DNA of 56,983 bases, from the NCBI GenBank assembly GCA_021163005.1, contig JAGGXP010000018.1, positions 1-56,983 on the forward strand. Direction: 5' to 3'. Numbering within the stretch: the first letter of the stretch is position 1; every line of letters starts with the position of its first letter. A program made the position numbers and the translations under genes. Shown here in pieces: positions 8,493 to 51,897 of this stretch. Below the pieces are notes generated by a model. It was not told where the DNA came from, did not search any database, and was given only the letters and a program-made list of their open reading frames with translations. This DNA comes from Candidatus Aenigmatarchaeota archaeon (lineage in GTDB: Archaea; Aenigmatarchaeota; Aenigmatarchaeia; QMZP01; JAFGSV01).

Positions 8493-9074
8493 ATGAGCAC
8501 GAAAAAGGCCGGTCCGGGCTTTAAGATAAAGGTTCAGAACATAGTTGCGTTCACTGTTCTCGGAAAGCCCATTTCCCTTGACGAGATGCTGCAGAAGGTT
8601 GATAACACGGAATGGCAGCCCGAGCAGTTTCCGGGGCTGGTGCTTAAGATAAACAACCCGAGGGCATCGGCTCTCATATTCTCCCAGGGAAAGGTCGTAT
8701 GCACGGGCACGAAGTCCCTCGAAGACCTCGAAAAGGCCATGAAGAAGATTGTCTCCGCCATCAGAAAGGCCGGCATATCCATGCCCAACAAGTACAGCAC
8801 AAAGGTCGAGAACATAGTTGCCTCGACCAAACTCGACGGCGAAATCAGCCTCGAGAACATAGCGCTGAAGCTGGAAAACAGCGAATACGAGCCTGAGCAG
8901 TTTCCGGGGCTGGTGTACAGGATAAGCGAGCCGAGGGTGGCATTCCTGCTCTTCAGGTCCGGCAGGGTGATATGCGCAGGCGCCCAGAATGAGGAAGACA
9001 TACACAGGGCCCTTGAAAGGCTGGTGGAAAACCTCGGGAAAGTCGGCATCAGGGTGAAGCCTGCGGACATCTGA
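8493..9074 (+). CDS. tbp: TATA-box binding protein (canonical)
   Basis: Two repeats, each with the E(P)EQFPGLV and LIFxxGKVVCTG / LLFRSGRVICAG motifs. Confidence 0.95.
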   Translation: MSTKKAGPGFKIKVQNIVAFTVLGKPISLDEMLQKVDNTEWQPEQFPGLVLKINNPRASALIFSQGKVVCTGTKSLEDLEKAMKKIVSAIRKAGISMPNKYSTKVENIVASTKLDGEISLENIALKLENSEYEPEQFPGLVYRISEPRVAFLLFRSGRVICAGAQNEEDIHRALERLVENLGKVGIRVKPADI

Positions 9075-9708: not shown

Positions 9709-12700
9709 ATGAATCCGGATGTTAGGCATTTAATAGAAAAATTTGAAGAAATGCTCACGCTGAACGGGCGCAAAAGGGTTTTTGAGGACGGGCAGAAATT
9801 ATCAACTGATTTCATAAACCAAAAATCCGACCCAGAAGCATTCACGAAAGAATTTCTCATAGAGCCGGTATTCAGAAAATTTAACCTGTCAAAATTAACG
9901 GAAAAGCATTTCAGAGGTATTAAGCAAGATTTGAGAAAAGTTGACTATGTCTTGAAAAACCATAAAGGCGAATCATTTTTAGCTGAAGCAAAGCCTCTCA
10001 ATTCTGATTTATTTGACAAATCATCTGATGGCGCAGTAAATCAGATTAAAGGTTTGTTCAGATTGGCAGAAGTTCAGAGGGATTACGAATTCGGCATAGC
10101 CACAGACGGATTAAAATGGATTTTCATTGACAAAAACTCTAAGGTTGTTTTTCAGTACGACTTGAGAGATGAGTTGGACAAAATAAGAGAAATATTAGTA
10201 GGAAAGGAAGAAGTGTCGTCAGAACGGATTGAAGAAGAAATCAGCAAAAAATTTTATGTATGGTATAACGCACTTCTTCACGGAGGAAAATACAAAGACC
10301 ATGAAAACAAAACCGGAACAATTTCAACCAAAGATTGCTTGGTTGAAAATATTCTTTTTGTTTCAAAGCCCGAAGACAAGAAACAGATAGCACAAACAAT
10401 TATGGACAGGCTCATTTTCATAAAATTCCTGCAATCAAAAGAAATTGTCGGCTATGATATCCTTAAGTATCTATCAAGCTTGGAAGAAAATATCCTGAAC
10501 GAAAAAATGAAACAACTGTTTTTTTCCGTGCTGAATACGAAAGAAAGTGAAAGAGTTGACATTGACCCCAAATTCAAAGGAATTCCGTATCTGAACGGCA
10601 GTCTGTTCGTAAGGACTGATGCAGAAACGAGAAATCCTGATTATAAGATAAGGGCTTTCATACTGAAAAAAGTCATAAAATTCTTGGACTCTTTCAAGTT
10701 CGTTCATACAGAAGACGTGTCCAACAAAAAAATCTTAGACCCTGAGATTCTTGGCTATATCTTTGAAAGGGCCATGACAGCCACGGACAGAAAAGGGACA
10801 GGTGCTTATTACACACCAAAGACCATAACGACCTACATATCAAAAAATACAATTCATCCTGTCATTGTCAAGAAAGTGAACAAACTGCTGAAAGAAAAAG
10901 GTTATAAAGACTCCGAATTGCTTAAAGACATAGAAGAAGTTTACAGGTTAAGGGAATCCACATTAGGAGAGGTTTTCAGCAAAATTATTCTCAATCTGAG
11001 AGTATGCGACAACGCCTGCGGCTCTGGGGCCTTTTTGCTGGCAGCTGCCGATGTATTACTGAAGGTTTACCAGAGAATAAAAGAGGAATTGAGATTAAGA
11101 AATTCTGAAATATCAATGAGAAAACTGATTTTGCAGAATAACCTTTATGGCGTGGATATAAACCCGAACGCCATTGAAATAGCAAAGCTGAGATTATGGC
11201 TGTGGCTTGTAACCGCATACGAGCCTGACAAAGTTGAGCCTTTGCCAAACATAGATTATAACCTACGGGTAGGCAATAGCTTAATCGGTTATGTTGATAT
11301 TAGCAAATTCAAAGATCACAAACTAACACTTTTAGACTGGTATAGTGCTGAAAAATCATTGAATATTCTCCTGAAAAAAAGAGAAGACAAAATCAAAGAA
11401 TATAAAACAGCTGCCGGAGATAAGGCAAGGGAGCTTAAATCAGAAATTGATGATCTTGATAAAAAAATAAAAAAACTGCTTGATATAAATCTGTTCCAAG
11501 AAATTAGCAAGAAAACAAAAATAGACGAGGAAGAATTCAGAAAAATCAACCCGTTCCATTGGGGCTTTGAATTCTATGATATTTTCGATGGCGACGGAGA
11601 GACAGATGAAAAAGGATTTGATGCTATTATAGGAAATCCGCCTTACATAAGAATACAAAATCTTAAATTAGAATCTCCTGCACAAGTAGAGATATTCAAA
11701 AAAATATACAAAACGGCGTCTAAAGGAAATTATGATATTTACGTTTTGTTCGATGAACGATCATTAAAATTAGTAAATGATGTTGGAATATTGGGTTATA
11801 TTCAACCACATAAATTTTTCCAAGCAAATTATGGAGAGGCACTCAGAGGAATTATTTCACGAAATAAATACCTCAGGGAAATTGTAAACTTCATGGATCA
11901 ACAGGTCTTTGTTGGAGCTACAACATATACATGCTTGTTGTTCTTAAGCAAACAGGAACACGAAAACTTTAGGTACGCCCAAATTGATAGAGTAGTTAAT
12001 TTATCTAACCAGCTTGAACAAATTGAACTGAATAAGAAAACAAATATAAAAATCGAGATTATACCTAGCACTTTAGTTTCTAGCTCTCCCTGGTCATTTG
12101 GAGTTGGACAAGAAATATCGATTTTATCTAAACTCAAATCAATTGAAAGCAACCTTGATTCCGTAACTGAAAGGATATTTCAAGGTGTTAGAACAGGAAT
12201 AGATGATATTTTTGTTCTAGATATAAGAAAAATAAAGGGCAAAAAAATATTAGGATTTTCTAAAGCATTGAAGAAAGATGTTGAAGTCGAATTAGGCATT
12301 ACATTTCCATTGGTTAAAGGGGAACAAATGTTAAGGTATTCCATAGATGATGCTAAAAAGAGGATTATTGTGCCATATTATGTAGACGAAAAATATCATT
12401 TAATTAAAGAAAGTGAAATGAAATTAAAGTATCCTCTTTGTTGGGAATATTTGAAAGAAAATAAAGAAATTTTAGAGAAGAGAGAAAGGGGTAAAATTGC
12501 CAAAATTGGTTGGTGGGGGTTTAGTAGAACACAGAATATTGATATAATAAGGAGGCAAAAAATTCTTACTGCTGATTTAGCTAACCATAACTCATTCAGC
12601 CTTGATGAAACTGGTGAAATACATTTCACAAGTGGTTATGGAATAATACCAAAAAAAGACTATCCAATAAAATTACTTTTGACTATTCTGAATAGTAAAT

Positions 12701-12957
12701 TGCTAGAGTGGTATTTACGAAAGATATCAACCACATTTAGAGGAGGTTATTATTCTTGTGAATATAGATTTATCAAAAACTTGCCTATTATAGAAGCAAA
12801 TAAAATTGAGAACAATATTAAGAACAAGCTCATTTCTCTTTGCGAAAAGGCTTTAAATGGCGATAAGAAATCTGAAAGTGAAATAGATATGCTGATTTAC
12901 AGAATCTACGGAATAACTAACGAAGAACAAAAAATCATAGAGGAGAGTTTGAAGTAA
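9709..12957 (+). CDS. Single-chain Type IIG/IIL-like restriction-modification enzyme (N-terminal PD-(D/E)xK nuclease, gamma-class N6-adenine methyltransferase, C-terminal specificity region)
   Basis: VDYVL...LAEAKP (9940-9993) looks like D...ExK. SAM motif I is DNACGSGAF (11008-11031). Catalytic motif IV is GNPPY (11631-11645). A C-terminal region of about 400 aa follows. The gene is AT-rich. Confidence 0.8.
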   Translation: MNPDVRHLIEKFEEMLTLNGRKRVFEDGQKLSTDFINQKSDPEAFTKEFLIEPVFRKFNLSKLTEKHFRGIKQDLRKVDYVLKNHKGESFLAEAKPLNSDLFDKSSDGAVNQIKGLFRLAEVQRDYEFGIATDGLKWIFIDKNSKVVFQYDLRDELDKIREILVGKEEVSSERIEEEISKKFYVWYNALLHGGKYKDHENKTGTISTKDCLVENILFVSKPEDKKQIAQTIMDRLIFIKFLQSKEIVGYDILKYLSSLEENILNEKMKQLFFSVLNTKESERVDIDPKFKGIPYLNGSLFVRTDAETRNPDYKIRAFILKKVIKFLDSFKFVHTEDVSNKKILDPEILGYIFERAMTATDRKGTGAYYTPKTITTYISKNTIHPVIVKKVNKLLKEKGYKDSELLKDIEEVYRLRESTLGEVFSKIILNLRVCDNACGSGAFLLAAADVLLKVYQRIKEELRLRNSEISMRKLILQNNLYGVDINPNAIEIAKLRLWLWLVTAYEPDKVEPLPNIDYNLRVGNSLIGYVDISKFKDHKLTLLDWYSAEKSLNILLKKREDKIKEYKTAAGDKARELKSEIDDLDKKIKKLLDINLFQEISKKTKIDEEEFRKINPFHWGFEFYDIFDGDGETDEKGFDAIIGNPPYIRIQNLKLESPAQVEIFKKIYKTASKGNYDIYVLFDERSLKLVNDVGILGYIQPHKFFQANYGEALRGIISRNKYLREIVNFMDQQVFVGATTYTCLLFLSKQEHENFRYAQIDRVVNLSNQLEQIELNKKTNIKIEIIPSTLVSSSPWSFGVGQEISILSKLKSIESNLDSVTERIFQGVRTGIDDIFVLDIRKIKGKKILGFSKALKKDVEVELGITFPLVKGEQMLRYSIDDAKKRIIVPYYVDEKYHLIKESEMKLKYPLCWEYLKENKEILEKRERGKIAKIGWWGFSRTQNIDIIRRQKILTADLANHNSFSLDETGEIHFTSGYGIIPKKDYPIKLLLTILNSKLLEWYLRKISTTFRGGYYSCEYRFIKNLPIIEANKIENNIKNKLISLCEKALNGDKKSESEIDMLIYRIYGITNEEQKIIEESLK

Positions 12958-12966
12958 GGTGTTCAA

Positions 12967-14121
12967 ATGCCGAGAAAATCTATAAAGATTGACGTGAAGC
13001 CTGATGTTTTCAAATGGCTCAGGGTGAGTGCCGGCTGGAATATTGAGGAAGTAAGCAAAAGAATAAAAACGAGTCCTGAAACTGTGAAAGCCTTTGAAAC
13101 AGGAGATAAAACACCTACTTTTAGGCAGCTGAAAGAATTGTCCCGAAGCTTCAGAAGGCCCGTGGCGGCATTTCTGCTTCCGGAACCCAAGAAGGAAAAG
13201 GGAAAACCGAAGGATTACAGATTCATTCCAGGCAGGAGTGGAATATTTGATAAAAAAACTATACTTGTCTTAAGGGAAGCACGGAGCCTACAGGAAGCAG
13301 GAAAGGATTTATCCAGTAATATTGAATACGAAACTAAGGCGAAAGTTGAAAAGGTTGGGCTTTCAGCTGATCCTGAAAAAATAGCAAAAAAATACAGGGA
13401 AGTCTTCGGATTGACCGAAGAAAAACAAAAAAGATTCAAAAGGACCTATGACTTATTCAATTATCTGAGGGACATCCTTGAGGACATGAATATTCTTGTA
13501 TTTCAGTTTTCTATGCCAGTGGAAGATGCAAGAGGTTTTGTTTTGTCGGATGAATCCCCAGCTGTCATAGTTGTCAACACTATGGATACAATAGAGGCAA
13601 GATTATTTTCTTTGATGCACGAGTTTGCACATATACTGTTGGGGCAATCTGTGATAGATTTTCCAGACATCTCGTCGTCAGTCAGGAACAGCGTTGAAAA
13701 ATGGTGCAATGAGTTTGCAGCATCGGTGCTTCTTCCTAAAGAAATAGCGAGGGTATTATTTGAAGCAAATCGTGGTAATTTGATAGAGAGAACGAGGCTT
13801 AATTATTTGTCGAGAAAATACAAAGTCAGCAAAGCTATGCTTTTATTTAATATGATGAAGATGGGTTATATAACAAAAACTGAATACGAAAACAAACTCA
13901 GCATATATCATCCAAAAGAGGCAGAAGCAAAAAAGAAGGGTGGGAAAGCCGGTGGTGGAATTCCAGCGGATAAGAGGTGCATTTCAAAGGTCGGAACCAA
14001 ATTTGTTTCTCTTGTGGCTAACAATTACGACCATGGTTATATAACCTATACTGACGCCCTGAATTATCTTTCGATAAAATCCAAAAACTTTGACAAAGTG
14101 CTGGCAAAGGCGATGAAATGA
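12967..14121 (+). CDS. XRE-type HTH fused to an ImmA/IrrE-family zinc metallopeptidase
   Basis: N-terminal HTH (WNIEEVSKRIKTSPETVKAFETGDKTPTFRQL). HEFAH zinc motif at 13618-13632. Overlaps the next gene by 4 nt. Confidence 0.8.
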   Translation: MPRKSIKIDVKPDVFKWLRVSAGWNIEEVSKRIKTSPETVKAFETGDKTPTFRQLKELSRSFRRPVAAFLLPEPKKEKGKPKDYRFIPGRSGIFDKKTILVLREARSLQEAGKDLSSNIEYETKAKVEKVGLSADPEKIAKKYREVFGLTEEKQKRFKRTYDLFNYLRDILEDMNILVFQFSMPVEDARGFVLSDESPAVIVVNTMDTIEARLFSLMHEFAHILLGQSVIDFPDISSSVRNSVEKWCNEFAASVLLPKEIARVLFEANRGNLIERTRLNYLSRKYKVSKAMLLFNMMKMGYITKTEYENKLSIYHPKEAEAKKKGGKAGGGIPADKRCISKVGTKFVSLVANNYDHGYITYTDALNYLSIKSKNFDKVLAKAMK

Positions 14122-14612
14122 CTTCTAATTATTATGTTATTGATACATCATCATTGGTTGGGTTGAATAGACACAATCCAATTGACGTTTTTCCCGGTTT
14201 ATGGAAGAAACTGGAAGGATTGGTTAATAAAGAAAGGTTGGTTGCACCGCGAGAAGTGATGTATGAAATCCTTCAAAATGATGATCATCTATCCAAATGG
14301 GTAAAAAAACAGAAAAGGATGTTCAAAGATCCTACTCCAAGACAAATAGAACTTGTGAAAGAAATAGTAAGCAGATATCCCTCTTTGATAAATCTTGACA
14401 ACAAATACAGTGCAGACCCTTGGGTCATAGCATTGGCAAAAGAATTGGCGACAAATCCACAGACAACGGTATTTTATATAAAAAGAATTGTTGTATCAGA
14501 AGAGAAGCTGAGAGGAAATAAAATTAAAATCCCCCTAGTATGCAACAATTATCAAATAGAAAATATGGATATAGTAACGATGTTTAGAACTGAGGGTTGG
14601 AAGTTTGAATAA
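14118..14612 (+). CDS. DUF4411 PIN-like nuclease-fold protein
   Basis: YVIDTSSLV at the N-terminus, ...PREVMYEI..., SADPWVIALAKE. This is the typical DUF4411 pattern and the typical partner of ImmA/IrrE-HTH proteins. Confidence 0.7.
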   Translation: MTSNYYVIDTSSLVGLNRHNPIDVFPGLWKKLEGLVNKERLVAPREVMYEILQNDDHLSKWVKKQKRMFKDPTPRQIELVKEIVSRYPSLINLDNKYSADPWVIALAKELATNPQTTVFYIKRIVVSEEKLRGNKIKIPLVCNNYQIENMDIVTMFRTEGWKFE

Positions 14613-15011: not shown

Positions 15012-17753
15012 TTACCTGTACCTCAGGATGCCTGCGAGGCCGCCCATTTCGTAAAGCTGCTCGCCCTCGTGCGTATCGACCGAGACTATTTCGAGTTTCG
15101 TGCCCACGTTTTCCGCGAACTTGTCGAGGACCTCTATGCCGTCGGTTTCTTTTTCCACTTCCACGCTTCCGCCGCAGTCGCATTTCAGCTCTCTGATTTT
15201 GTCCTTTTTGACCATCTTCCTGATTTTCTTCCCGCAGGCGCTGCACTTCCCTTCGACTTCCACCAAGTCGAAGTCCTCGGAAACCAGCAGTATCTCAACA
15301 GAGCCGCTTTCGAGCGCCTTCAGCGTCTCATGTATGCCATATACAGCGAGGCCGTTGTCCTTTGAGAGTTCTGAGAAGAAGCGTTCCAGAAGCTTCCTCT
15401 CCCTTGTCACGGACGCCTCTGCCAGTATGTCCTCGGCTCTTGCAATCATCTCCTCGAGCCCCGGAACGCCTGTATAGGACGTGTCGATGACGCCTATTAC
15501 CTTTGACTTTATGTCAGTCGGGATGTGGTCGCTGTTGAAGAACATGTCCTTTATCGGCCCCGGGCCGCCTATGAGTATGCCTTTCATGTCCTTGGTCTCG
15601 CGGAAATATGAGGTAGCTATCTCCGCCGTCTTCTTGAGGTGGTCGTTCAGCAGTCCTTCCCTGACGCGCGCATAACGGGCCTGTGAATTGTGGACTATGA
15701 TGCCGTTCGCCATGAAGTTCCTGTATTTTGGCACTTCCATGTCGTAGAACTTCCCGTCAGGCCTGACCTTCTCTATCGACTTTATCCTTGCTGATATGAG
15801 CCCGGATTCAGCCATCGAGCGGAGGGACGAGAGAGCGGCGGCTGCCTTGGGAGAACTGCCGAGCTTCTTTTCTATGGTTTTCATGATGTTCCTGTGGAAA
15901 ACCGGATAGCTCATTCCCTTCCTGTCGAAAAAGAAATCCTGGACCTTCGGGAAATCATCAGTCGTGAGGCCCAGCTCGTGTATGAGTCTGAGCACGTGGC
16001 TTCCGAGGAACGGTATCTGGTCCGTGTAGGTGTTTCTGGAAGCTGTCTTCGTTATCTCTGAAAGGACTCCGGCCTTCTTCGCGGAAAGCAGTGGTATATG
16101 CTTTGAAAACCTCAGGAGGGACTCTCCGTCTGTTATGACGAGGGCGTATCTCATGTGCCGGGCGAAGCTTCCCCTCGCCGGCACGGCCTTCATAGAACTG
16201 ATGATGCCGAACCTCAGGAGGAGGAGCTGCAGCTTTGCTATTATATGGCGCTCCTTCATCGTTATCCCTGCCGAGCCGTTGCTTTTGGTTGCATAGCCTT
16301 CTGCATCCCATATGCCGCCTACGAAATGGGCTACAACGTCCGGCGGGGACATGGTTATGGACTCCGGTATGTCCCTCTCGCTGTTTTTGAATACCTCCGG
16401 GAAGCTCTTGCGCAGCATGTCGCACAGGTGCCTTGAATGGAGCCTTGTTTCATGGTAGTTTCTGCCGCCCCTCTTCCTGGGAGAAGCCCTGACACCGAAG
16501 AGCTTTTCGGAAATCCGGGAGTACTCCTCAGCGAGAGCGCGGTCTCCTTCGTTCAGCGTCAGCCGGTTTTTCTCTATGCCACCGTCGCCGATGAAATACC
16601 CAATGAATCTCGCCGCATCCCTTGTCAGCATATTTGGCCATTTTATCGCCGGAGCAGCATTTGCTACTCTGCTCATGGCGGAACGGGGGAGAGCATACGC
16701 GCCGAGAATCCTCTCGAGCAAATCGGAACCCGGTTCCCTTTCGCCCCTCTCGAACTTGGATATGAATGTCTGGGAAACGCCTGCCTTCTCCGCAACCTGC
16801 CTCTGCGTGAGCCCGAGGGACCTCCTCTTTCCCGCGAGAAATTTCCTGCCCTGCTCCGTGACCCTGTGAATCACGGGCGCTTCCGCTTCTATGCTCTGCA
16901 TGCTGCCACTGAAATCAAGCGACCTGAGGCAGAGCAGCCTCTCGCCTGCTGAAAGCTCGCCGGCAGCCTTCGTGCCGAACCCGTCGGGTGTGGGAACGAA
17001 GAATTTGTGCTCAGGTGTCACTGTTATGCTCATGGACGGGGCCTTGGTCGAGATTCTCAGCGCTTCATTGCTTTTTCTGACAAAATAATGGGCATGCCTG
17101 GCGGCGGCACGTGTCATCCTGCTGAAATCATATGAGACGAATTTCTCGCTGCCTATCTCGCTTACCTTTTTTATCCTTCCGTCCGAAAGCTGCATAAAAC
17201 TGTCTTCATGGACGCACCACCCGCCTTTCTTCGTCTTTCCGGGAACAAGGGACTCTATGTGCTTCAGCGACTCTATGCGCTTTCCCGCAAGAAGCCCTAT
17301 CTCAGAGTCAGACTTGTCGAGCACTATGAGGCCGTATATCTCCTTCTCCCTGACCATGTGCTTCAGCGGGTCGAGGACGAACGTCTGGTCGCACCTGTAA
17401 AGCCGCTGGTTGAGCTTCTCCGGCGGCTCTATTGCCCAGAGCTCTATGTCGCTGTCCCCTTCCTTTTCGGAAACGTTGCCGCAGAATATGGCGAGCCCGT
17501 TCGGCGGGGTAGACCTGTAAAGCTTGAGGTGCTGGGCGACCTTTTCGAGCGCCCCGAGCACATTCTTCCTGACCGTCTTCGACTTTATGTTAGCCGCTGT
17601 CCCCTGCTCCTGCGTAACCTGAGTGCCGACTATGTTGAGGTTGGCGCCTGCCGGCACGTATATGGTTATGAGCTCCGTATGCCTGCCGCGTATGGAGCCG
17701 AGCTTCTTTATCAGCCCCTTGAGCCTCTTCTGGGCTATGGTTTCCATGGCCAT
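15012..17753 (-). CDS. prf1: Peptide chain release factor aRF1, interrupted by an intein
   Basis: NIKS (TAANIKS) and YxCxxxF (YRCDQTF) are present. ...[10 protein letters not shown]|C...intein...HN|[10 protein letters not shown] aligns with GGQ|S of e/aRF1. The C-terminal domain has a CxxC...CxC zinc ribbon. The first ATG is at 17753; the track starts at GTG 17762. Confidence 0.9.
15687..17216 (-). mobile_element. Intein (510 aa) with a LAGLIDADG homing-endonuclease domain and an embedded XRE-type HTH
   Basis: Starts with CVHEDSF (Cys codon 17214-17216). Block B is TPEH. LAGLIDADG motifs are GYFIGDGG and GGIWDAEGY. The HTH is [24 protein letters not shown]. It ends with IIVHN (Asn codon 15687-15689) followed by Ser. 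Confidence 0.85.
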
Positions 17754-17808
17754 GTCAATCACGTGCTTAAAATTGAGACTGCGAATTTAAATGAGTCCGC
17801 AGAAATCG

Positions 17809-26298: not shown

Positions 26299-26943
26299 TC
26301 AAATGATGGAATTCACATGGAATTTCCTGACATCCACACCAAGTCCGCTGAAGACTGATAAGACTCTCTTTGAGCTATGAATCGGTATCATAAGGCAGTT
26401 GCTTCCGAGTTTTATTGTCCCCGTTCCCCCAATAGCTCCCTCATATCGCCTGTTGTTCATGTTATAGCCGTAAAGCTTTTTGCTCAGAAGAACACGCTTT
26501 GTCTCCGGCTTTACTTTCTCCCACGAGATGATGACAAACGACTGCCTTCCTTTGGCAGCACCGGCATACTTGCCGTAAAGTACTATTCCGTCAGATATCA
26601 TGGAAGGTTTCAGGTTGTCCCATTTTTCGAGACTGCCTGTGATGCAGTTTATCTCGTTTTCAATTCCCTGCATTTTCCAGACTTTCCTGAAAACCAGACT
26701 TTCGTAAAATAATCTGACTGCATTTAAGACCGCCTTTTCTGTGTTTTTCTGGACCAGGTCTTTTTTTGATGGCACGTTTATGAATATGTCGATATCGCTT
26801 TTTTTGCCGGCATCATCTCTTGCAGCAGAACCGAAAAGTATTATGGTTTCAATCTCATTTAGCGCATCTTCGTCCAGACTGTCAAAAAGAAAAGAAACGA
26901 AGCTTTGCGAGTAAGCGATAAATGCTTTATTCACAATCAACAC
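26299..26943 (-). CDS. Nucleotidyltransferase-domain protein (minimal NTase / MNT-like) with an uncharacterised C-terminal extension
   Basis: LFGSAARDDAGKKSDIDIFI is a GSxxR-D...DxD pol-beta NTase signature. Confidence 0.7.
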   Translation of the reverse strand: MLIVNKAFIAYSQSFVSFLFDSLDEDALNEIETIILFGSAARDDAGKKSDIDIFINVPSKKDLVQKNTEKAVLNAVRLFYESLVFRKVWKMQGIENEINCITGSLEKWDNLKPSMISDGIVLYGKYAGAAKGRQSFVIISWEKVKPETKRVLLSKKLYGYNMNNRRYEGAIGGTGTIKLGSNCLMIPIHSSKRVLSVFSGLGVDVRKFHVNSII

Positions 26944-27322
26944 CCATTGATTTGAATATGGCTTTTATCCTGTTGAATGTCTGCATGAAATCCTCCATGA
27001 GCTTTTCAGTCTGCGGCTTTCCGTAACAGAGCAGATTTCTCTTTCTCTCGAGGTCTGCCATCAGCTTCAGGAGCTTCTTCTTATTTTCAAATTCCGGTAA
27101 TTTGCCAGTGGCTTTCCTTGCAGAACTGAACAAGTCATGCTTGATGCTGGCTCCAGGATATATCAGTCCCTTCTGGTGGAGGTATATCTCCAGCATGTCG
27201 GCCGCGGCTACGGAGCAGTGGAATCCTATTGTCCTCTGTCTTTCGGTCATGCCCCTATGTATGGAGTCTCTTATCTCTTCAAGACTCTCCTTCAGTGCTC
27301 TTTTGTGAGATTCTATGTTCAT
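26927..27322 (-). CDS. Small helical protein, a possible HEPN-like partner of the NTase
   Basis: Overlaps the NTase gene by 17 nt. All-helical by eye, with no clean Rx4-6H motif. Trimmed to Met at 27322 because the upstream track residues come from the operator repeats. Confidence 0.35.
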   Translation of the reverse strand: MNIESHKRALKESLEEIRDSIHRGMTERQRTIGFHCSVAAADMLEIYLHQKGLIYPGASIKHDLFSSARKATGKLPEFENKKKLLKLMADLERKRNLLCYGKPQTEKLMEDFMQTFNRIKAIFKSMGVDCE

Positions 27323-27407
27323 GGATACACCTGTATAAATATTTTGATACACTTGTATATAAATGTTATGGTACAGTTGTATCAATTAATTGATACGTTT
27401 GTATCAA
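27323..27407 (-). promoter_or_regulatory. Operator/promoter region with repeated GATAC...GTATC palindromes
   Basis: Direct repeats gatacacctgtataaat and gatacacttgtatataaat. An 18-bp perfect palindrome gtatcaattaattgatac lies at 27379-27396. It overlaps the inverted repeat ttgatac-gttt-gtatcaa at 27390-27407. Confidence 0.6.
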
Positions 27408-27655: not shown

Positions 27656-27959
27656 CGCCGAGGGCAGGATTTCCAGCTCTCTGAACCGCAGGGAACGTGC
27701 CTGAAGACGGCTTTGCTCATCCTGCGTTAGCCGTCATCTTGCGTTTCTGTTCAAGCCTGCTTTGTGCATTCTGCGTATGTAGGCTGTATGCTTGCTGTCC
27801 CTTGTTGTCCACTGCCGTTAGCCCTCTTAAGCGGGGAATAATGCTTTAAGGGGGCGTATAAGCGTAAGCTATCGTGGCCCCCTTGAGCCTTTGAACCTGC
27901 ACGTCCGAAGACACCCGTTTTCGAGACGGGCGCGTTAAACCGGGTTCCGCCACCTCGGC
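27656..27959 (-). tRNA. tRNA-Ser (anticodon CGA), class II, interrupted in the T-loop by a 220-nt insert/intron
   Basis: Acceptor GCCGAGG/CCTCGGC plus discriminator G. D-arm GCG-GAACCCGGTTTAA-CGC. Anticodon arm CCCGT-CTCGAAA-ACGGG. Variable arm GTC-TTCG-GAC. T-arm GCAGG-TTCAAA[27670-27889]T-CCTGC. TATA ttatataa lies 29-36 nt upstream. Confidence 0.75.
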
Positions 27960-27984
27960 TTTGTGGTATTCTATATCGTATTAA

Positions 27985-37708: not shown

Positions 37709-38272
37709 TCAATCCTCCACGAAGTCCGCCTTTATGCCGGCGCCGTCAAGCTTGTTTTTGAGCTCCCTGACAGCGGCCTGTATGTTCTTTATGCTGTCAG
37801 AGCCTGTGCATATTATCTTTCCTTCCGGGAGTATCAGAAAGTCAGCATTGTGCTCTTCGTCCATGTAGACAACACCCTCTATGCCGCCTGAAGCCTTTTC
37901 TGCTCCCTCAAGTGCCTGAGAAACGGCATCAAGGTCGAACGGTTTGTCCATCCTGAAAGCAGCCACTATCCTCTCGATGTCTATCTCAGGTTCGCTGTCG
38001 ATGGAGACACCCACACTTCTCAGCTTTTCGAGAACAACGCCTATGGCTTTTCTGGCGTCCTGTATGCTCTTAGGGCCTGTGCAGACTATCCTTCCCGAGG
38101 GGAATATGAGTGCTGTGGCCTTCGGCTCCCTTACCCTGTAAACGACACCCTGCGACTCCTCGCTCTCGTATTCGGTGTTTTCTTCTGAGGTCACGAGCTT
38201 CTCGATGGGAATTGCTGTCATGAGATTGGCGACAGCTGTCACATCCTCTATCCTGACCGGAAGAACGCCCAT
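37709..38272 (-). CDS. Divergent TBP-like protein (second TBP paralog)
   Basis: Two TBP repeats are recognisable (ALIFPSGRIVCTGPKS and FLILPEGKIICTGSDS). The EQFPGL motifs are replaced by EESQGV and GGIEGV. Confidence 0.7.
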   Translation of the reverse strand: MGVLPVRIEDVTAVANLMTAIPIEKLVTSEENTEYESEESQGVVYRVREPKATALIFPSGRIVCTGPKSIQDARKAIGVVLEKLRSVGVSIDSEPEIDIERIVAAFRMDKPFDLDAVSQALEGAEKASGGIEGVVYMDEEHNADFLILPEGKIICTGSDSIKNIQAAVRELKNKLDGAGIKADFVED

Positions 38273-38647: not shown

Positions 38648-38846
38648 TCAATAGGTGGGTTGAATTGCCTAAAGACGACTTTGTCCACACTGCGCATGTC
38701 GTCGGTGTGCGTTTCTGTTTGGAGTGTCCGACTATGCACTATAATGATGATGCAGCGGTGTGCGTTCCTGTTCGAACAGTGCGATTGTGCTATGTTTACT
38801 ATGAATTAGTTTCTGCATGTTTCTGTTTTAACCGCGCCTTGCGTGT

Positions 38847-44290: not shown

Positions 44291-44445
44291 CAACTTTCAC
44301 AAATTTCTGAAAGTTATGTATAATAAATACATTTGGTATATAAATGTTTGCCGGCAGGAAAGAACCTTTAAAAATTTATAAGTATTTAAGTAGGCATATA
44401 TTTAAGTCAAAACATTCATTAACAGTAAGATTATCAAGTGGTTTA

Positions 44446-44970
44446 ATGGGTAAAAGTGATAAGAAAGAGGATGCAGGGGCAAAGTCAGAGGCAAAGCCGC
44501 GGAAGGTGCCCGAAGAATCCAGGAAGAAGCGCATAAGCATAGTCAGGATAGGAGGCAGGGACCTCGACAGCTCCATGAAACTCATCAGTGCCATCACAAT
44601 GGTGCGCGGGGTAAGCTACACACTCGCCAACGCCATATCAAAGATTTCAGGTCTTGGTGAAAAGGACGTCGGCGAACTTTCAGAGGACGAGATAAAGAAG
44701 CTCGAGGACATGATGCAGAACCCCGCCAAATACGGCGTGCCGGAGTGGATGCTCAACAGGAGGGCCGACCCGGAGCACGGGGCCAACGCCCACAACGTGT
44801 CCGCCCAGCTGGAACTGAGGCATAAAATGGATATAAACGAGCTCAAGAAGGGCAAGTCGTACAGAGGCATAAGGCACATAACCCACCTTCCCGTGAGGGG
44901 TCAAAGGACAAGGAGTTCCTTCAGGAAATCCACAGCCGTGGGTGTCAGCAGGTCCAAAGCCAAGAAGTGA
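44446..44970 (+). CDS. rps13: 30S ribosomal protein S13 (uS13) with a Lys-rich N-terminal extension
   Basis: IVRIGGRDLDSSMKL..., YRGIRHITHLPVRGQRTR. Start set at the ATG at 44446. Confidence 0.9.
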   Translation: MGKSDKKEDAGAKSEAKPRKVPEESRKKRISIVRIGGRDLDSSMKLISAITMVRGVSYTLANAISKISGLGEKDVGELSEDEIKKLEDMMQNPAKYGVPEWMLNRRADPEHGANAHNVSAQLELRHKMDINELKKGKSYRGIRHITHLPVRGQRTRSSFRKSTAVGVSRSKAKK

Positions 44971-44975
44971 TTTTT

Positions 44976-45449
44976 ATGAGAAGTCTTTCAAAACGATTCA
45001 AGAAGCCGAGGATGTCCTGGGATTCCGACGATATAAAGGAAAGAAAGGACATCATGAAGACGTACGGACTCAGAAGGCGCAAGGAGATACTCGTCGCACA
45101 GGAGATTCTCAGGAACTACAGGAGAAGGGCGAGGGAACTCATCGCAGAACAGGATGAGGAGAAGGTCAAGCCGCTGATAGACAAGCTGGTAAAGCTCGGC
45201 CTGCTCCAGAAGGGGCAGGGGCTTGACGACGTCCTCGCGCTGACTGTGAACAACATACTCGACCGCAGACTTCAGACCATAGTATGGAGGAAGGGATTCG
45301 CAAGGACGCCGCTCCATTCAAGGCAGTGCATAACACATGGCCACGTCAGGATAGGCAAGAGGAAGACCATATCGCCTTCATACATAGTGCCTGTGAACGA
45401 TGAGGTGAAGATAAAGGTCGAAGCACTGGAAAGGGGTGGTAATGAATGA
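44976..45449 (+). CDS. rps4: 30S ribosomal protein S4 (uS4)
   Basis: YGLRRRKEI..., LDRRLQTIV..., [12 protein letters not shown] at 44976. Confidence 0.9.
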
Positions 45450-45838
45450 GCAAGGAAGCGAAATGGGGCATAGCGCACATATACTCAAGCGAAAACAACA
45501 CCATTATTCATATTACTGACATAACGGGCTCTGAGACCATATCGAGGGTTTCGGGCGGCATGGCGACCGACAGGGACAAGGACAAAGGCAAGGCGTTCCC
45601 TGCGATGAGGGCAGCCAGGAGAGCCGGAGAGGAGACACTTGAGAAGGGCATAACCGGCGTCCATCTGAGAATCAGGGCTCCGGGCGGGCACAAGAAGAAG
45701 ATACCCGGAGAAGGCGCCCAGCCGGCGATACGCGGCCTCATCAGGGCCGGTCTCAGGATAGGTTCCATAAAGGACGTCACGCCTGTTCCGCATGACACTA
45801 CGAGGAAGCCGGGCGGAAGGCGCGGGCGCAGAATGTAA
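45446..45838 (+). CDS. rps11: 30S ribosomal protein S11 (uS11)
   Basis: [19 protein letters not shown]... and ...[22 protein letters not shown]. Confidence 0.95.
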
Positions 45839-45861
45839 GCCCCAGTATATGGTGATATAAT

Positions 45862-46842
45862 ATGGCAAAGGGACACAAACCGGTTGCAGGAAGCAGGGCA
45901 TTCTGGCCGAGAAAGAGGGCAAAGAGGATTTATCCCACTGCAAAGAAGAGAACCCTGTCCGGAGAAAAGATTGTCCCGCTTGCATTTGCAGGATACAAAG
46001 CCGGGATGACGCAGATAAGCTTCACAGAGACGCGAAAGGATTCTGCCAGAAGCGGACATGACGTCGTCGAGGCAGCCACTGTCATAGACTGCCCGCCCCT
46101 CAATGTCGTCGGCATAAAGCTCTACAGGGAAGTCAACGGGAGGCTTGTCAATGAGGGCGCCGTCTGGGCCGAGAATCTTGCAAAGGATCTTCAGAGGAAG
46201 CTCGATGTTCCCAAGAAGCCGCACATGAAGAAGGAAATGATAGGCAAGAAGCTCGACCAGCTGAAAGAGGTCAGGATAATAGTCAGCACAATGCCGAGGG
46301 AGAGCGGATTTTTCAAGAAGACCCCGGAAATATTCGAGATACCTGTTTCAGGTGATGTCGAGAAGCAGTGGGCTTATGCCCTTGAAAAGCTCGGCAAGGA
46401 GATAAGGTTTTCAGATGTTTTCGCGCCCGGAGAGAAAATAGACGTCAGGGCAGTTACAAAGGGAAAGGGATTCGCAGGTGTTGTCAAGAGGTTCGGCGTC
46501 ACGATAAGGGGCAGGAAGCACGGCGGAAAGAGAAGGCACATAGGCAATATCGGTTCAGTCGGTCACGGAAGGGTGCTTCCGGGAGCCATCGCCATGGCGG
46601 GGCAGCTCGGATTCCAGACAAGGACCGAATACAACAAAAAGGTCCTTAAGATAGGCGAGGACGGTTTTGAGCCCAAAGGCGGCTTCCTCCACTACGGAAG
46701 GGTGCCCAAGGACTACGCCTTTGTGGAAGGTTCTTTGCCCGGTCCGAAGAAGAGGCTTGTCATGATGATGAAGGCTTCAAGGCACAGCGGTCCTCTCAAC
46801 CCGGTCGAGATAAACCACATTTCACTCGAAAGCCAGCAGTAA
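45862..46842 (+). CDS. rpl3: 50S ribosomal protein L3 (uL3)
   Basis: GSRAFWPRKRA..., KGKGFAGVVKRFG..., and the expected size. Confidence 0.95.
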   Translation: MAKGHKPVAGSRAFWPRKRAKRIYPTAKKRTLSGEKIVPLAFAGYKAGMTQISFTETRKDSARSGHDVVEAATVIDCPPLNVVGIKLYREVNGRLVNEGAVWAENLAKDLQRKLDVPKKPHMKKEMIGKKLDQLKEVRIIVSTMPRESGFFKKTPEIFEIPVSGDVEKQWAYALEKLGKEIRFSDVFAPGEKIDVRAVTKGKGFAGVVKRFGVTIRGRKHGGKRRHIGNIGSVGHGRVLPGAIAMAGQLGFQTRTEYNKKVLKIGEDGFEPKGGFLHYGRVPKDYAFVEGSLPGPKKRLVMMMKASRHSGPLNPVEINHISLESQQ

Positions 46843-46851
46843 GCGCTGATT

Positions 46852-47442
46852 CTATTCGTGCTCCCAGCCGAAGAGTTCTACAAGGAAGATGGCAATCGGG
46901 AAGAATGCCACAAGCAGTATGAATGCCAGGATGGCTATTATTATGTTAGCCGTCGGCAGGTTCGAGCCCACGAGGAATGCTATGCCGATGTAAACCGCTA
47001 TGCTGAACGCGAACACGAGCGTCGCCAAAAGGTTTGCTGTCACGGCAAGGATGCCCGTCAGAGACAGGAGGGCCGTGAGGATTATTATCACAAGGACTAT
47101 AAGGAACATGACCCATGCCTCCATGCCCGTGATAAGGAAGAACGCAATCACAACAAGCGCGATTACCAGCGCCATGGATACGGGATTCGAAAGCAGAGAT
47201 ACTGCCGATGAACTCCCGGCGCTAATAAAAACCTTTCCGGACAGAGCGAAAAACAGTAGAAAAATGAGGATTATCATGCCCGTGCTTCCGGCCGGTATAA
47301 GCTCTGCGAATGGATATCCCTTCAGCGCCGCGAAGATTACCCATATGAGCGACAGGAATATCAGAATCACAAGCGCCACGATGACGAGATGCCACTTGCT
47401 TCCATGAAAGGTCTCGTCGTATGTCTTCCACGAATGGGTCAT
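46852..47442 (-). CDS. Polytopic membrane protein, unknown function, antisense insert between L3 and L4
   Basis: 6-7 hydrophobic helices. No recognisable motif. Confidence 0.5.
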   Translation of the reverse strand: MTHSWKTYDETFHGSKWHLVIVALVILIFLSLIWVIFAALKGYPFAELIPAGSTGMIILIFLLFFALSGKVFISAGSSSAVSLLSNPVSMALVIALVVIAFFLITGMEAWVMFLIVLVIIILTALLSLTGILAVTANLLATLVFAFSIAVYIGIAFLVGSNLPTANIIIAILAFILLVAFFPIAIFLVELFGWEHE

Positions 47443-47494
47443 AATAAATAATTGGACAGACAGATTAAAAAGCGCTCAGTTTTAATTTCTTGCT

Positions 47495-48379
47495 GTGAAA
47501 ATATCCTCAGGTGGTTTTTTGCCGGAGGCCTACAAACCTGACAAAAGCACAATGGACATCGTCTTCTTCTTTTCAGGAGGCGCGAGCAGCATGCACGCGG
47601 TTCTCGAAAGCCCGGAGCACGGCAGGATTTACAGGGTCGCGGGAGCCGTTACCAACAGGCCGGAAAGGGAGGCTGCCCGTGGATGGGATACTGCAAGGCA
47701 GCACGGCATAGAGCCGCTGTATGTCAGTCCCGGGAAGTTCAGCACAAGAGAGGATTTCTATTCATATGTTGCGGACGCTGTAGACGAAATGAGGCCGGAT
47801 GTCATAGGCCTTTCCGGGTTCCTCAGGAAGTATTCCATCATATCCGAGCCGTTCCTCGGCAGGTACAGGAACAGGATATTCAACGTCCATCCCGCGGATC
47901 TCGCCATCGTGTATTACCCGGAACGCAGGAAGCCCATAGAACTGGGGAGGGACGGCATAGAAAAGACGAAAAAGCACCTTGGGAAAATGGAATGGAGGCA
48001 TGCAAGGAGGTTTATTGACTCTGGTTTCGAGAGGCTTTACAGCGGGGACGATGCCGTCACGATGGCCGTGCTTTTCGGCGAGAACGAGCTCCGTTCGACC
48101 GTGCATGTTGTTGAGGAAAAGGTGGACGGAGGGAAGATACTTGTCAGGTCGCAGCCAAAGGAAGTCGACGCAGCGTATGTTGAAAGGATGCTTTCGAGGA
48201 ATGCATACAGCAGGATAGCGCATTATGCGTCATGCCTGCAGGATGAAATGAAGCGCGACTGCGACGGCCCTGCTTTCATAAAGAGCCTTGAACTAAAGGC
48301 AGCTGGCCGGCTGGATATCAAAGACAATTTCGTCACGCTCGACGGCGAGCCGCTTCCATACGGCGGATACCTGATGTAA
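47495..48379 (+). CDS. Formyltransferase-fold protein, PurN (GAR transformylase)-like with an internal insertion
   Basis: NVHPADL (N/H of the PurN NxHPSLLP motif), VHVVEEKVDGGKIL, and C-terminal LDGEPLPYGGY resembling the PurN C-terminus. The start is uncertain: GTG 47495 or ATG 47552. Confidence 0.6.
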   Translation: MKISSGGFLPEAYKPDKSTMDIVFFFSGGASSMHAVLESPEHGRIYRVAGAVTNRPEREAARGWDTARQHGIEPLYVSPGKFSTREDFYSYVADAVDEMRPDVIGLSGFLRKYSIISEPFLGRYRNRIFNVHPADLAIVYYPERRKPIELGRDGIEKTKKHLGKMEWRHARRFIDSGFERLYSGDDAVTMAVLFGENELRSTVHVVEEKVDGGKILVRSQPKEVDAAYVERMLSRNAYSRIAHYASCLQDEMKRDCDGPAFIKSLELKAAGRLDIKDNFVTLDGEPLPYGGYLM

Positions 48380-48441
48380 ATGCGCCAATTCTCAAAAAGC
48401 TTTTAAATATCAATGCCACGATATAATTTCAAGTGATTTCA

Positions 48442-49239
48442 ATGAAAGCGCCGGTTTATGACATCAGCGGAGCGAAAAAGGGCGAAATGACGCTCGGGAA
48501 GGCATTCTCGAGTCCAGTCAGGAGCGACGTGATAAAGAAGGCAGTGCTGGCCGAGCAGGCCGCACAGAGGCAGCCATACGGCTCTGACCCACTCGCCGGA
48601 CAGAGAACATCGGCCGACTACAGAGGAAGGCGTGGCATCAGGGGCAGCATGATGAACCGCGAGATGTCCAGGATGAAAAGGATAACAGGCGGGGGCTTCC
48701 TTCGCTGGAGGGCGAGGGCAATAGCAGGCGTCGTGAAGGGGCGCAGGGCCCACCCGCCCAAGACAGAGAAGAACTGGGAGCTCAAGATAAACAAGAAGGA
48801 AAGGATTCTTGCTCTCCTTTCCGCGGTTTCTGCGACACGGAAGAAGGAACTCGTAGAACAGCGGGGACACAGAATAGAGGGAGTCAAGCACATCCCGCTC
48901 ATAGTAGATGACAAGCTTCAGGAACTTAAGAAAAACAAGGATGTTTACAGCCTGCTGAAGGCACTAGGACTTGGGAAGGAGCTGGAGCGCTGCTCTGAAA
49001 CCAAGACGAGGTCCGGCATCGGCAAGTTCAGGGGCAGGAGAAAAATAAAGAAAAAGGGCCCGCTAATAGTTGTTGCAGAGGACAAGGGAATATCAAAGGC
49101 AGCCGGCAACATCCCCGGCGTCGAGGTTGCAACCCCGTCAACACTCAGGGTGAGCATGCTTGCACCGGGAACTGCACCGGGAAGGCTCACACTATGGACA
49201 AAGTCCGCTGCAGAGGCAGTGGAGAAGCTCGCAGCTTAA
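48442..49239 (+). CDS. rpl4: 50S ribosomal protein L4 (uL4)
   Basis: MKAPVYDISG..., QPYGSDPLAGQRTSA..., GRRG. Confidence 0.9.
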   Translation: MKAPVYDISGAKKGEMTLGKAFSSPVRSDVIKKAVLAEQAAQRQPYGSDPLAGQRTSADYRGRRGIRGSMMNREMSRMKRITGGGFLRWRARAIAGVVKGRRAHPPKTEKNWELKINKKERILALLSAVSATRKKELVEQRGHRIEGVKHIPLIVDDKLQELKKNKDVYSLLKALGLGKELERCSETKTRSGIGKFRGRRKIKKKGPLIVVAEDKGISKAAGNIPGVEVATPSTLRVSMLAPGTAPGRLTLWTKSAAEAVEKLAA

Positions 49240-49263
49240 ATTTCTTTCTGTTAAAATCATTTT

Positions 49264-50295
49264 ATGCTCGTTAAATCAGATCTCTATTTCAAAAACAGGG
49301 GATACGGGGTATCAGACATAAGGTCTATATACAGCGATTTCATAGACCTCAGCGATAAGTACGGGCTTACGAACGAGGACGTATTCGATGCCATAATGGA
49401 CGCCTCATACAAAGACATAGGCATCATCATACCGGAATTCGTAAAAAAGAGGCGCAGGAATTCCCAGCCGAGGCCATACTTCTGGGACAGGACGCAGACC
49501 AAGACCATGAACGGAAAGGTTGTTCCGCTGGACACCGCGACCAGATTCATGAAATTCGGACCCGCTATAGACCTGACGCGTGCGTCCACCACGCAGAAAG
49601 AGATACTCGAATACGAGCTGACGCCGAGAAAGGCGTTCAGGGACCTTGACGAAAGCAAAAACAAAAGGCGCCTGAAAAACGGGGCTTTCCGCGGCATAGG
49701 CTGGTGGGACCCGAAGCGAAAGAAGCACAAGCTCCTGCCGTTCGAGGTTCCGGTAGAGGGTGAAGAGTTCTACAAACGCTTTGCTGACGAGATGGTATTC
49801 AAAAACCTGCGCTCCGACGCTCTGATAGAGGTGCCTTCCATAAGCCGCTACATGAAGAAGGACTACACTGTCATAATGCGCGTGCTTCCCGTGACAGAAG
49901 GCAAGTACTACCATGAATGGCTCATGACCGATGTTATTGACGGCTGCGAGGGAAGGTTTTTCAGCAGCGGAAGCGGCAAGAAATATGAAAACGGTGAATT
50001 CATAGACATATACAAGTATGCGAGCCCGGAGGACGCCTACTGCAGGCACAGCTGGGGGGCGCTGCTTGCTGCTGAAGAGAAAAGCCGCATCAAGCCGGGT
50101 GCATTGACTTTCAGGGTCTCTTATCCGCGGACAAAAGAGGAATACAGGGAATCGTGGAAGACCTTAAACCTGAAAACCATAGTGAGGCTGCACAACGGGC
50201 GCGAGAGAAGGCCGAACAAGACCGAAGCGAGAATACAGCTCGGCAGGAACATGGGTTTTCTCGGCGCTGATGGCTCCTTCGACCTGTCAGAGTGA
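49264..50295 (+). CDS. Hypothetical basic protein (343 aa) inserted between L4 and L23
   Basis: Long ORF on the same strand as the operon. No antisense competitor looks coding. No motif recognised. Confidence 0.6.
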   Translation: MLVKSDLYFKNRGYGVSDIRSIYSDFIDLSDKYGLTNEDVFDAIMDASYKDIGIIIPEFVKKRRRNSQPRPYFWDRTQTKTMNGKVVPLDTATRFMKFGPAIDLTRASTTQKEILEYELTPRKAFRDLDESKNKRRLKNGAFRGIGWWDPKRKKHKLLPFEVPVEGEEFYKRFADEMVFKNLRSDALIEVPSISRYMKKDYTVIMRVLPVTEGKYYHEWLMTDVIDGCEGRFFSSGSGKKYENGEFIDIYKYASPEDAYCRHSWGALLAAEEKSRIKPGALTFRVSYPRTKEEYRESWKTLNLKTIVRLHNGRERRPNKTEARIQLGRNMGFLGADGSFDLSE

Positions 50296-50416
50296 CAGTA
50301 AACAGAAAAGCGCAAAGTCCGATGTTTCACCAAACCGGCAGAGAAAACAACCGAAACATATAAATACCTTTTTCTATAATGATAAGGAATAACGCTACAG
50401 TTTAACAGGTAACAAT

Positions 50417-50797: not shown

Positions 50798-50815
50798 TCT
50801 TTATGAGGATTTTCA

Positions 50816-51487: not shown

Positions 51488-51513
51488 TTTATATTACCGG
51501 AGGATTGTTTATT

Positions 51514-51894: not shown

Positions 51895-51897
51895 GTG

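Follow-up and report, generated by a model that had tools for sequence, protein, structure and literature searches.

Can a transfer RNA (tRNA) gene that is broken in its T-loop by 220 nt still give rise to a tRNA? This question is raised by a tRNA-Ser(CGA) locus in contig JAGGXP010000018.1 of a Candidatus Aenigmatarchaeota genome (assembly GCA_021163005.1), which we analyzed as a stretch of 56,983 nt (hereafter the window, whose numbering is used for all positions; its tRNA-Ser and tRNA-Leu genes both lie on the minus strand). The insert, at tRNA position 59/60, is likely a true archaeal intron of the bulge-helix-bulge (BHB) type, which would be removed by a splicing endonuclease and a ligase. 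According to our best reading of the sequences, it appears to belong to a family of repeat-like introns that is recently expanding in this species.

Anatomy and junctions of the interrupted tRNA-Ser(CGA) gene

The 5′ exon (27959–27890, tRNA positions 1–59) was delimited from the sequence and by ARAGORN after joining. From 27959 it reads GCCGAGG-UG-GCGG...CGC, corresponding to the 5′ strand of the acceptor stem and the D-arm, continues with the anticodon arm (stem CCCGU/ACGGG, loop CUCGAAA, anticodon CGA) and a long variable arm (GUCUUCGGAC), and ends with the T-stem strand GCAGG (27900–27896) and the T-loop nucleotides U54–A59, UUCAAA (27895–27890). The insert (27889–27670), which is built of repeat modules, was delimited by a BHB scan, by comparison with a longer allele and by module comparison. 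It is followed by the 3′ exon (27669–27656), recognized from the sequence and from related species, which comprises U60, the T-stem strand CCUGC, the acceptor strand CCUCGGC and the discriminator G73; CCA is not encoded. A TATA-like box, TTATATAA, was read from the sequence at 27995–27988, 29–36 nt upstream of the gene start, and presumably serves as the promoter; the block TATATAAC(A/T)GTTAA was also found upstream of the Ser gene in relatives. The 3′ trailer CTTCCTTCTTTT (27655–27644) contains a T-run, with similar runs in relatives, and is the likely terminator.

Neither ARAGORN nor Rfam (at the gathering threshold or at E ≤ 10) detected any tRNA in the unspliced window. When the pieces 27959–27890 and 27669–27656 were joined, ARAGORN returned a class II tRNA-Ser(cga) of 84–85 nt with a 7-bp acceptor stem, a 5-bp T-stem and a complete cloverleaf. 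A preliminary description, which had read a tRNA-Ser(CGA) gene split in the T-loop by 220 nt, was thus correct to the base. In-silico splicing and comparison with relatives revealed no damaging substitution in the exons. The interrupted site was seen in three independent assemblies (the window, L015 and L021; L-numbers are our labels for the related loci and contigs compared), and the insert is therefore not an assembly artefact.

At the junctions, we identified a canonical 3-4-3 hBHBh′ motif, the 4-bp central helix of which is free of mismatches. Its 5′ half (27895–27885) is made up of UUCA, i.e., U54–A57 (27895–27892), the bulge A58 A59↓G (27891–27889; arrows mark predicted cuts) and GCUC (27888–27885), and its 3′ half (27679–27669) of GAGC (27679–27676), UGGA (27675–27672) and the bulge A A↓U60 (27671–27669). 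The outer helix H1 is the T-stem itself (GCAGG/CCUGC, 27900–27896 with 27668–27664, 5 bp), the central helix pairs U54 U55 C56 A57 with UGGA and includes one G-U pair, and the second outer helix, H3 (GCUC/GAGC, 4 bp), lies within the intron. The motif scan thus superseded the model of a 6 × 6 loop containing a UUC/GAA mini-helix that had been drawn here in the preliminary description, whereas the proposal of an archaeal-type, unusually long T-loop intron at 59/60 was upheld, with a strict BHB that cuts at this very site and a tRNA that is restored by splicing in silico. Endonuclease–RNA structures place cleavage after the second bulge nucleotide, and on this assumption the two cuts come directly behind 27890 and 27670, exactly at 59/60. 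By definition, the hBHBh′ motif consists of a 4-bp central helix, two 3-nt bulges on opposite strands that hold the splice sites, and outer helices (PMC4090602), and α4 and α2 endonucleases need the strict 3-4-3 form (PMC3239211). Since the Ser motif is strict, even an endonuclease of narrow specificity should accept the Ser precursor.

Such ends could be fortuitous if a repeat element had inactivated the gene and UCG were read by another tRNA. In a scan of the 304-nt precursor, however, the strict hBHBh′ motif was matched only once, and this match excises exactly 220 nt at 59/60. Among 400,000 shuffled versions of the insert, 61 (1.5e-4) showed the strict motif at this site with H3 ≥ 4 bp, and 200 (5e-4) did so with H3 ≥ 3 bp. 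A strict BHB placed by chance exactly at 59/60 is hence expected in about 1.5e-4 of random inserts, which argues against a dead gene, as do the undamaged exons. Folding of the precursor under constraints for the acceptor, anticodon and T-stems and the BHB yielded −102.6 kcal/mol compared with −107.9 kcal/mol for the unconstrained fold, a gap of only 5.3 kcal/mol, which also supports the motif.

The distance between the two pieces is large for an intron, and one might think of a split gene whose parts are joined in trans, as in Nanoarchaeum. The pieces are, however, collinear on one strand, and over its last ~75 nt the insert is, by eye, rich in G+C and free of a TATA-like box. We regard a split gene, or an insert that exists because it hosts an RNA with a function of its own, for example a C/D-box guide (discussed with the intron interior), as highly improbable.

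Interrupted tRNA genes in the same species and in its relatives

The second interrupted gene of the window, tRNA-Leu(CAG) (39570–39113), was resolved by a BHB scan and ARAGORN after removal of two introns. Its exons span 39570–39555, 39510–39455 and 39126–39113. The 44-nt D-loop intron (39554–39511) shows symmetric GA↓A bulges, CCGA(GA↓A)GCCC...GGGC UCGG(GA↓A). The T-loop intron (39454–39127) measures 328 nt, lies at 59/60 and has a relaxed BHB: the 5′ junction reads GCAGG-UUCG-AA↓U-GCACCC... and the 3′ junction ...GGGCUGC-AGAG-AA↓U-CCUGC, with one mismatch in the central helix UUCG/AGAG and AA↓U in both bulges. Removal of both introns led to an 86-nt tRNA-Leu(cag) in ARAGORN. The architecture common to the Ser and Leu inserts, which the preliminary description had also noted, is therefore real with respect to site and bulge geometry. 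Beyond these two genes, a permissive scan of the window for split T-arms produced only noise.

Two further cases were found on contigs of the same species or close strains that were reached via the TBP gene. A tRNA-Leu(UAG) gene (L017) contains a 109-nt insert at 59/60 with a perfect central helix UUCG/CGGA, in addition to an intron in the D-region, and a tRNA-Val(CAC) gene (L018) contains a 152-nt insert at 59/60 with the central helix UUCG/CGUG (one U-U mismatch) and the outer helix GCACC/GGUGC. ARAGORN accepted both genes after removal of the inserts, having called neither beforehand; on Val(CAC), Rfam gave only a sub-threshold partial match to the 5′ exon. The Ser geometry, with A58 A59 plus one nucleotide in the 5′ bulge and A A↓U60 in the 3′ bulge, is shared by Leu(CAG) and Val(CAC) and approximated in Leu(UAG), and every T-loop intron ends in ...NNNN-AA before U60. 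In a fifth gene, tRNA-Val(GAC) upstream of the gene for arginyl-tRNA synthetase (ArgRS), the T-loop is intact and a canonical 59-nt intron with a strict BHB (UUGA/UCAA, GACCC/GGGUC) is present. This gene was located in L033 (1479–1610, same population), where ARAGORN missed it, and in L022 (133–264), where Rfam detected it (50.5 bits). Of the five different tRNA genes recovered from the species or close strains, four thus have a long insert in the T-loop. The D-loop introns of the Leu genes and the strict canonical intron of Val(GAC) indicate that the species depends on BHB splicing. Together with the geometry shared across tRNA genes, this dependence is the main argument against an inactivated tRNA-Ser: three other tRNA genes, including two Leu isoacceptors, share its site and geometry, and a small DPANN genome is unlikely to hold so many dead tRNAs.

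On its gene content, the host was assigned to the archaeal phylum Aenigmatarchaeota. The window carries archaeal housekeeping genes (aEF-1alpha, aEF-2, aIF2/IF5B, two TBPs, RadB and topoisomerase I), as well as aRF1, L7Ae, many ribosomal proteins and RNase P p29, which were recognized by Pfam. The topoisomerase gene begins 119 nt from tRNA-Ser, and its closest named homologues all belong to Candidatus Aenigmatarchaeota (DPANN), the nearest other species being 77% identical. We compared seven relatives (six derived from genomes and one from a metagenome) with topoisomerases of 68–77% identity. In all seven a syntenic tRNA-Ser(CGA) adjoins the topoisomerase gene, and none has the T-loop insert: six of the genes are uninterrupted, and the seventh (L012) has a canonical intron of 24 nt at 37/38 and no other. 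Once joined, the T-arm and 3′ end of the window gene, GCAGGTTCAAATCCTGCCCTCGGCG, agree exactly with those of L009, L010, L012 and L013, far beyond what chance would give, and differ by one substitution each from those of L011 and L014; L016 is uninterrupted according to ARAGORN. The 5′ exon is 83–89% identical to that of the same gene in these relatives. Because the syntenic orthologues lack the T-loop insert, we conclude that it represents a lineage-specific gain in a conserved gene. Its absence from all related species examined marks it as recent, which would also suit a gene that had lately been inactivated.

A metagenome scan with the topoisomerase returned two loci, of which L015 proved decisive. 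Compared with the window, the L015 and L021 populations differ at 7 of 2,082 nt of the topoisomerase gene (0.34%) and at none of the 70 nt of the 5′ exon. Their Ser introns are 496 nt (L015) and 495 nt (L021) long, and the exons (in L015) and intron ends match the window. A length that varies among near-identical strains is what unconstrained DNA would show, and to this extent it favors a pseudogene; the intron ends, however, stay constant while the interior changes by 276 nt, which speaks against it.

Repeat modules inside and outside the introns

Allele comparison revealed that the 220 nt of the window correspond to positions 1–185 plus ~462–496 of the 496-nt allele found in L015 and L021. 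Since the breakpoint falls within a 48-nt direct repeat (92% identical; long-allele positions 138–185 and 416–461), the difference between 220 and 496 nt is explained by recombinational deletion or duplication. The long allele contains further internal duplications (23–68 and 235–280).

The interior itself is no more stable than chance would give. Folding returned z-scores of −1.7 (intron), −2.2 (Ser precursor) and −0.1 (Leu precursor), and a conserved fold is not supported. The insert had been called structured in the preliminary description, a view that is at odds with the z-score of −1.7 and a length of 220–496 nt among near-identical strains. A hosted RNA, the second form of the improbable alternative introduced above, has some precedent in archaeal tRNA-Trp introns with a C/D-box RNA (PMC4090602), and the 496-nt allele does contain one UGAUG and one CUGA, ~100 nt apart. 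This weak pair lies, however, in the part deleted from the window allele, and the Ser intron lacks both a long open reading frame (ORF) and strict C/D boxes (RUGAUGA/CUGA with guide spacing). No Rfam family matched any of the introns in permissive searches, run at E ≤ 10 on the window and at E ≤ 1 on five related loci. Several named identities were rejected on these grounds: a group I self-splicing intron (no Rfam match at the locus even at E ≤ 10), a known small RNA (no family matched in the window and the five related loci) and an intron-hosted C/D-box RNA of the tRNA-Trp type (strict C box missing).

Copies of the modules were found at many places outside the introns. On the plus strand, sequence comparison matched window positions 175–240 (within a stretch spanning 175–515) to positions 341–407 of the L015 intron (82%), and window positions 490–515 to positions 460–485 (96%); both lie in intergenic DNA, the latter 26-nt module overlapping the last codons and the stop of an ORF with a STAS domain (492–929, minus strand). 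Positions 185–241 of the long allele resemble window positions 38775–38666, upstream of a TBP gene. The window encodes two TBP paralogues within 30 kb, at 8493–9074 (plus strand) and 37709–38272 (minus strand), and the intron-type modules at 38666–38775 stand upstream of the second. A tandem array of 3.2 units of 82 nt was recognized by repeat analysis at 39111–38847 (minus strand), beginning 2 nt past the 3′ end of tRNA-Leu (39113). Its unit is 72–77% identical to the T-loop intron of Leu(UAG) in L017, which amounts to about 1.3 copies of the unit, and two more copies were found by sequence comparison at the left edge of the window (1–160, plus strand). The same repeat region at the left edge also includes a 79-nt tandem repeat of 2.3 copies (231–412).

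The introns of Leu(CAG) and Val(CAC) start with a common module, U-GCACC-CUUUU-hairpin-AAAAG-CGCGCCCCGGAA, that is 82% identical over 44 nt, and the arms of its hairpin differ by paired changes (GAGC/GCUC vs. CCGC/GUGG). Inverted copies of this module lie downstream of tRNA-Ser (27643–27589 and 27499–27451). A composite repeat module on the minus strand (27563–27450) shows, in inverted orientation, 94% identity over 104 nt with a stretch of the Leu(CAG) T-loop intron. Finally, the hairpin module CCCUUUUC...GAAAAG is shared by T-loop introns, the canonical intron of Val(GAC) and the Val(CAC) trailer. The intron interiors are thus mosaics of tandemly duplicating hairpin modules that also occur in tRNA trailers and intergenic DNA, and not conserved structures. 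Their repeat-like behavior is real, given the dispersed copies, even though membership among miniature inverted-repeat transposable elements or insertion sequences was rejected: the two ends have no more than the 4-bp GCUC/GAGC helix in common, the AAA/AAU repeats on either side correspond to the BHB bulges, and no transposase gene is present in the window.

Transfer RNA T-arms are classical targets of integration. An 80-nt segment directly downstream of tRNA-Ser (27643–27564, minus strand), revealed by allele comparison, is missing from the L015 allele. Its first part (27643–27589) repeats the intron 5′ module GCACCCUUUU-hairpin-AAAAGCGCGC..CCGGAA over 55 nt in inverted orientation, and its second part (27588–27564) exactly duplicates the 25 nt of the tRNA-Ser 3′ end plus trailer. 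The segment resembles a module that was inserted with duplication of a 25-bp target, or the product of unequal recombination. The 3′-exon copy within it (27588–27576) was also tried as an alternative splice acceptor and rejected: it has no BHB, and G stands in place of U60. The duplicate of the tRNA end 80 nt downstream could also be taken for the att core left by a decayed tyrosine-recombinase element that had integrated at the T-loop or 3′ end, the T-arm having been discussed as such a target (PMC4090602). Integration of this kind would, however, regenerate an uninterrupted tRNA at one junction, whereas here the 5′ part lies at least 220 nt from every 3′ copy. Moreover, the duplicate flanks only the 55-nt repeat unit and is missing in L015, which keeps the intron. 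Pfam analysis of essentially all ORFs of the window revealed no integrase, transposase, reverse transcriptase or other mobile-element gene. The intron and module patterns had no meaningful match in 2.9 million viral contigs of IMG/VR: two of three pattern scans gave no match, and the third gave 10 matches, all due to chance and without tRNA context. An integration scar thus appears very unlikely.

One of the strain contigs gave a hint of movement between tRNA genes. In L021 (3300–3900; ENA ERZ27248172, k141_278726), the Ser 5′ exon leads into the 495-nt intron, after which come AUCCUGC-CGGGCCC-A and the ArgRS gene; this 3′ exon (AUCCUGCCGGGCCCA) belongs to a different tRNA, not to Ser. The two exon contexts share only 9 nt, and the contig was, as its name suggests, assembled with k = 141. 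As an overlap of 9 nt is far shorter than this k, the reads must hold the 3′ end of a Ser-type intron fused to the other exon. The junction represents either a second, near-identical intron copy in the T-loop of another tRNA or a true recombinant. In L022 and L033, the tRNA adjoining ArgRS is free of a T-loop intron. Given this fusion, and the absence of the Ser intron from relatives with at most 77% protein identity, the data point to intron gain and spread within the species, possibly akin to the transposition proposed for Thermoproteales. On either side of the tRNA-Ser locus, the short-read contigs of the species come to an end, and at the tRNA-Leu locus they stop (L019, L020) or run into a different tRNA gene (L017, L018); the repeats probably create chimeric contigs. 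The four short-read contigs with the topoisomerase gene (L001–L004) all end at base 27968, 9 nt upstream of tRNA-Ser and not inside the intron.

How, then, do the two main readings of the Ser locus compare? Several points weigh against splicing. The strains are only 0.3% diverged, so that conservation of the exons and the BHB is uninformative, and no compensatory changes were seen in the BHB helices. The BHB is absent from the unconstrained minimum-energy fold of the Ser precursor, and the BHB motifs of the Leu and Val genes are relaxed, with one mismatch or an offset outer helix. No gene for EndA or RtcB was found by Pfam in essentially all ORFs of the 57-kb window. A length of 220–496 nt is far above the 'less than 100 nt' stated for archaeal tRNA introns in a review (PMC4033280). 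Finally, tRNA-Ser(UGA) could in principle read the UCG codon, so that loss of the Ser(CGA) gene might be tolerated. The alternative of an inactivated gene, raised already in the preliminary description, was right about the material, as the insert is indeed made of dispersed modules that are also present in intergenic DNA. The gene is not thereby dead, and the evidence favors a spliced gene; we judge inactivation by a repeat element unlikely.

A spliced BHB intron would account for the observed anatomy, junction motif, comparative pattern and polymorphism as follows. Transcription from the upstream TATA-like box would yield one ~300-nt precursor, in which the T-stem, the U54–A57/UGGA helix and the intron–intron helix GCUC/GAGC expose the two 3-nt bulges. 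EndA would then cut after A59 and before U60, and a ligase of the RtcB type would join the exons to the 84-nt tRNA-Ser(CGA), with the exon junction GGUUCAAA↓UCCUGC. The 220-nt intron would be released, probably as a circle with the junction ...GCUGGAA↓GGCUCAAG.... Transcription, cleavage, ligation and circularization are steps that we infer. The interior would have no conserved job; it would grow and shrink by tandem duplication and recombination as one member of a hairpin-module family that has colonized T-loops, one canonical intron and tRNA trailers. More tentatively, and with slightly less than even confidence, we propose that these are mobile, repeat-like BHB introns, which would be new: hairpin modules would home to the palindromic T-arm, survive thanks to the host endonuclease, expand and seed the arrays in trailers and intergenic DNA. 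If this holds, intron gain has been caught in progress within one Aenigmatarchaeota species, and a concrete cause emerges for the 'missing tRNAs' reported for DPANN genomes.

The surroundings of the locus offered further observations. A 131-aa ORF is paired with a nucleotidyltransferase gene (NTP_transf_2; 26299–27385, minus strand). The pair looks like a HEPN/MNT-type toxin–antitoxin system, an assignment that draws on the nucleotidyltransferase domain, the only one tested, and it is preceded by two copies of a 24-nt repeat rich in TGATAC/GTATCA palindromes (27334–27382). The aRF1 gene (15012–17762, minus strand) is interrupted by an intein with LAGLIDADG homing-endonuclease and helix-turn-helix (HTH) domains. 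An island of low G+C content (9709–14612; about 35% vs. 49% for the window) encodes a 1082-aa type IIG restriction-modification enzyme (Eco57I/MmeI-like), an IrrE/M78 peptidase-HTH protein and a DUF4411 protein, and is likely a horizontally acquired defence island. The ribosomal-protein cluster (44344–53141) is interrupted over the span 46852–50295 by a formyltransferase-like gene (47495–48379) and by two ORFs (46852–47442 and 49264–50295) that have no Pfam match.

Relation to known archaeal introns

Both the kind of element and its mechanism are already known. The BHB introns of archaeal rRNA, such as those in the 16S and 23S genes of Thermoproteales, demonstrate that the same endonuclease is able to excise inserts that are hundreds of nucleotides long. 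They reside in rRNA and often encode homing endonucleases, whereas the introns described here occupy the T-loops of tRNA genes, and no long ORF is present in the one intron checked, that of Ser. The C/D-box intron of tRNA-Trp in Haloferax and other Euryarchaeota (PMC4090602) is likewise a long BHB intron (~100 nt) with an interior of its own identity, but it occupies the canonical site 37/38 and has conserved C/D boxes; here we found neither such boxes nor a conserved interior.

Position 59/60 is a listed non-canonical intron site that is used in many tRNAs of Thermoproteales (PMC4090602). In DPANN archaea, ARMAN-2 carries introns at this site in tRNA-Cys(GCA) and tRNA-Pro(GGG), and a 13-nt intron at 59/60 was cleaved in vitro by the ARMAN-2 endonuclease (PMC3239211). 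The known introns share with ours the T-stem as outer helix, pairing of nucleotides 54–57 with the 3′ end of the intron and two 3-nt bulges (PMC3239211, PMC4090602). ARMAN-2, however, belongs to the Micrarchaeota and not to the Aenigmatarchaeota, and its 13 nt compare with 109–496 nt here. The introns of the present species further differ from known 59/60 introns in that they consist of tandemly duplicating modules, vary in length within the species and have copies outside introns. If they are spliced, the size range of archaeal tRNA introns is stretched several-fold, and the BHB machinery tolerates T-loop interiors of 100–500 nt.

DPANN endonucleases with an extra loop accompany increased disruption of tRNA genes, and the incomplete tRNA sets of new DPANN genomes have led to the suspicion that disrupted genes went undetected (PMC5829648). 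Consistent with this notion, T-loop-interrupted genes escaped ARAGORN and Rfam in the 57 kb and the related loci, so that tRNA complements and completeness of DPANN genomes can be understated. The repeats, which break every short-read contig recovered for the Ser and Leu loci, also matter for binning and synteny.

A full-text search of open-access papers and bioRxiv brought up no report of introns of this type. The features that are new are the size of 109–496 nt, the construction from modules with copies outside the introns, the polymorphism between strains and the concentration in the T-loops of several tRNAs. The closest parallel is offered by the transposing introns of Thermoproteales (Fujishima et al. 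2010, cited in PMC4090602), where related introns in different tRNA genes or positions imply recent gain. The same pattern was found here, with similar introns in non-orthologous tRNA genes and no insert in the orthologues of relatives. The present introns occur in another phylum, are much longer and are accompanied by module arrays in 3′ trailers and intergenic DNA. Moreover, the Thermoproteales introns represent fixed differences between species, whereas those described here are polymorphic between strains in both presence and length, and such strain-level data, together with the shared modules, provide material for working out how BHB introns are gained.

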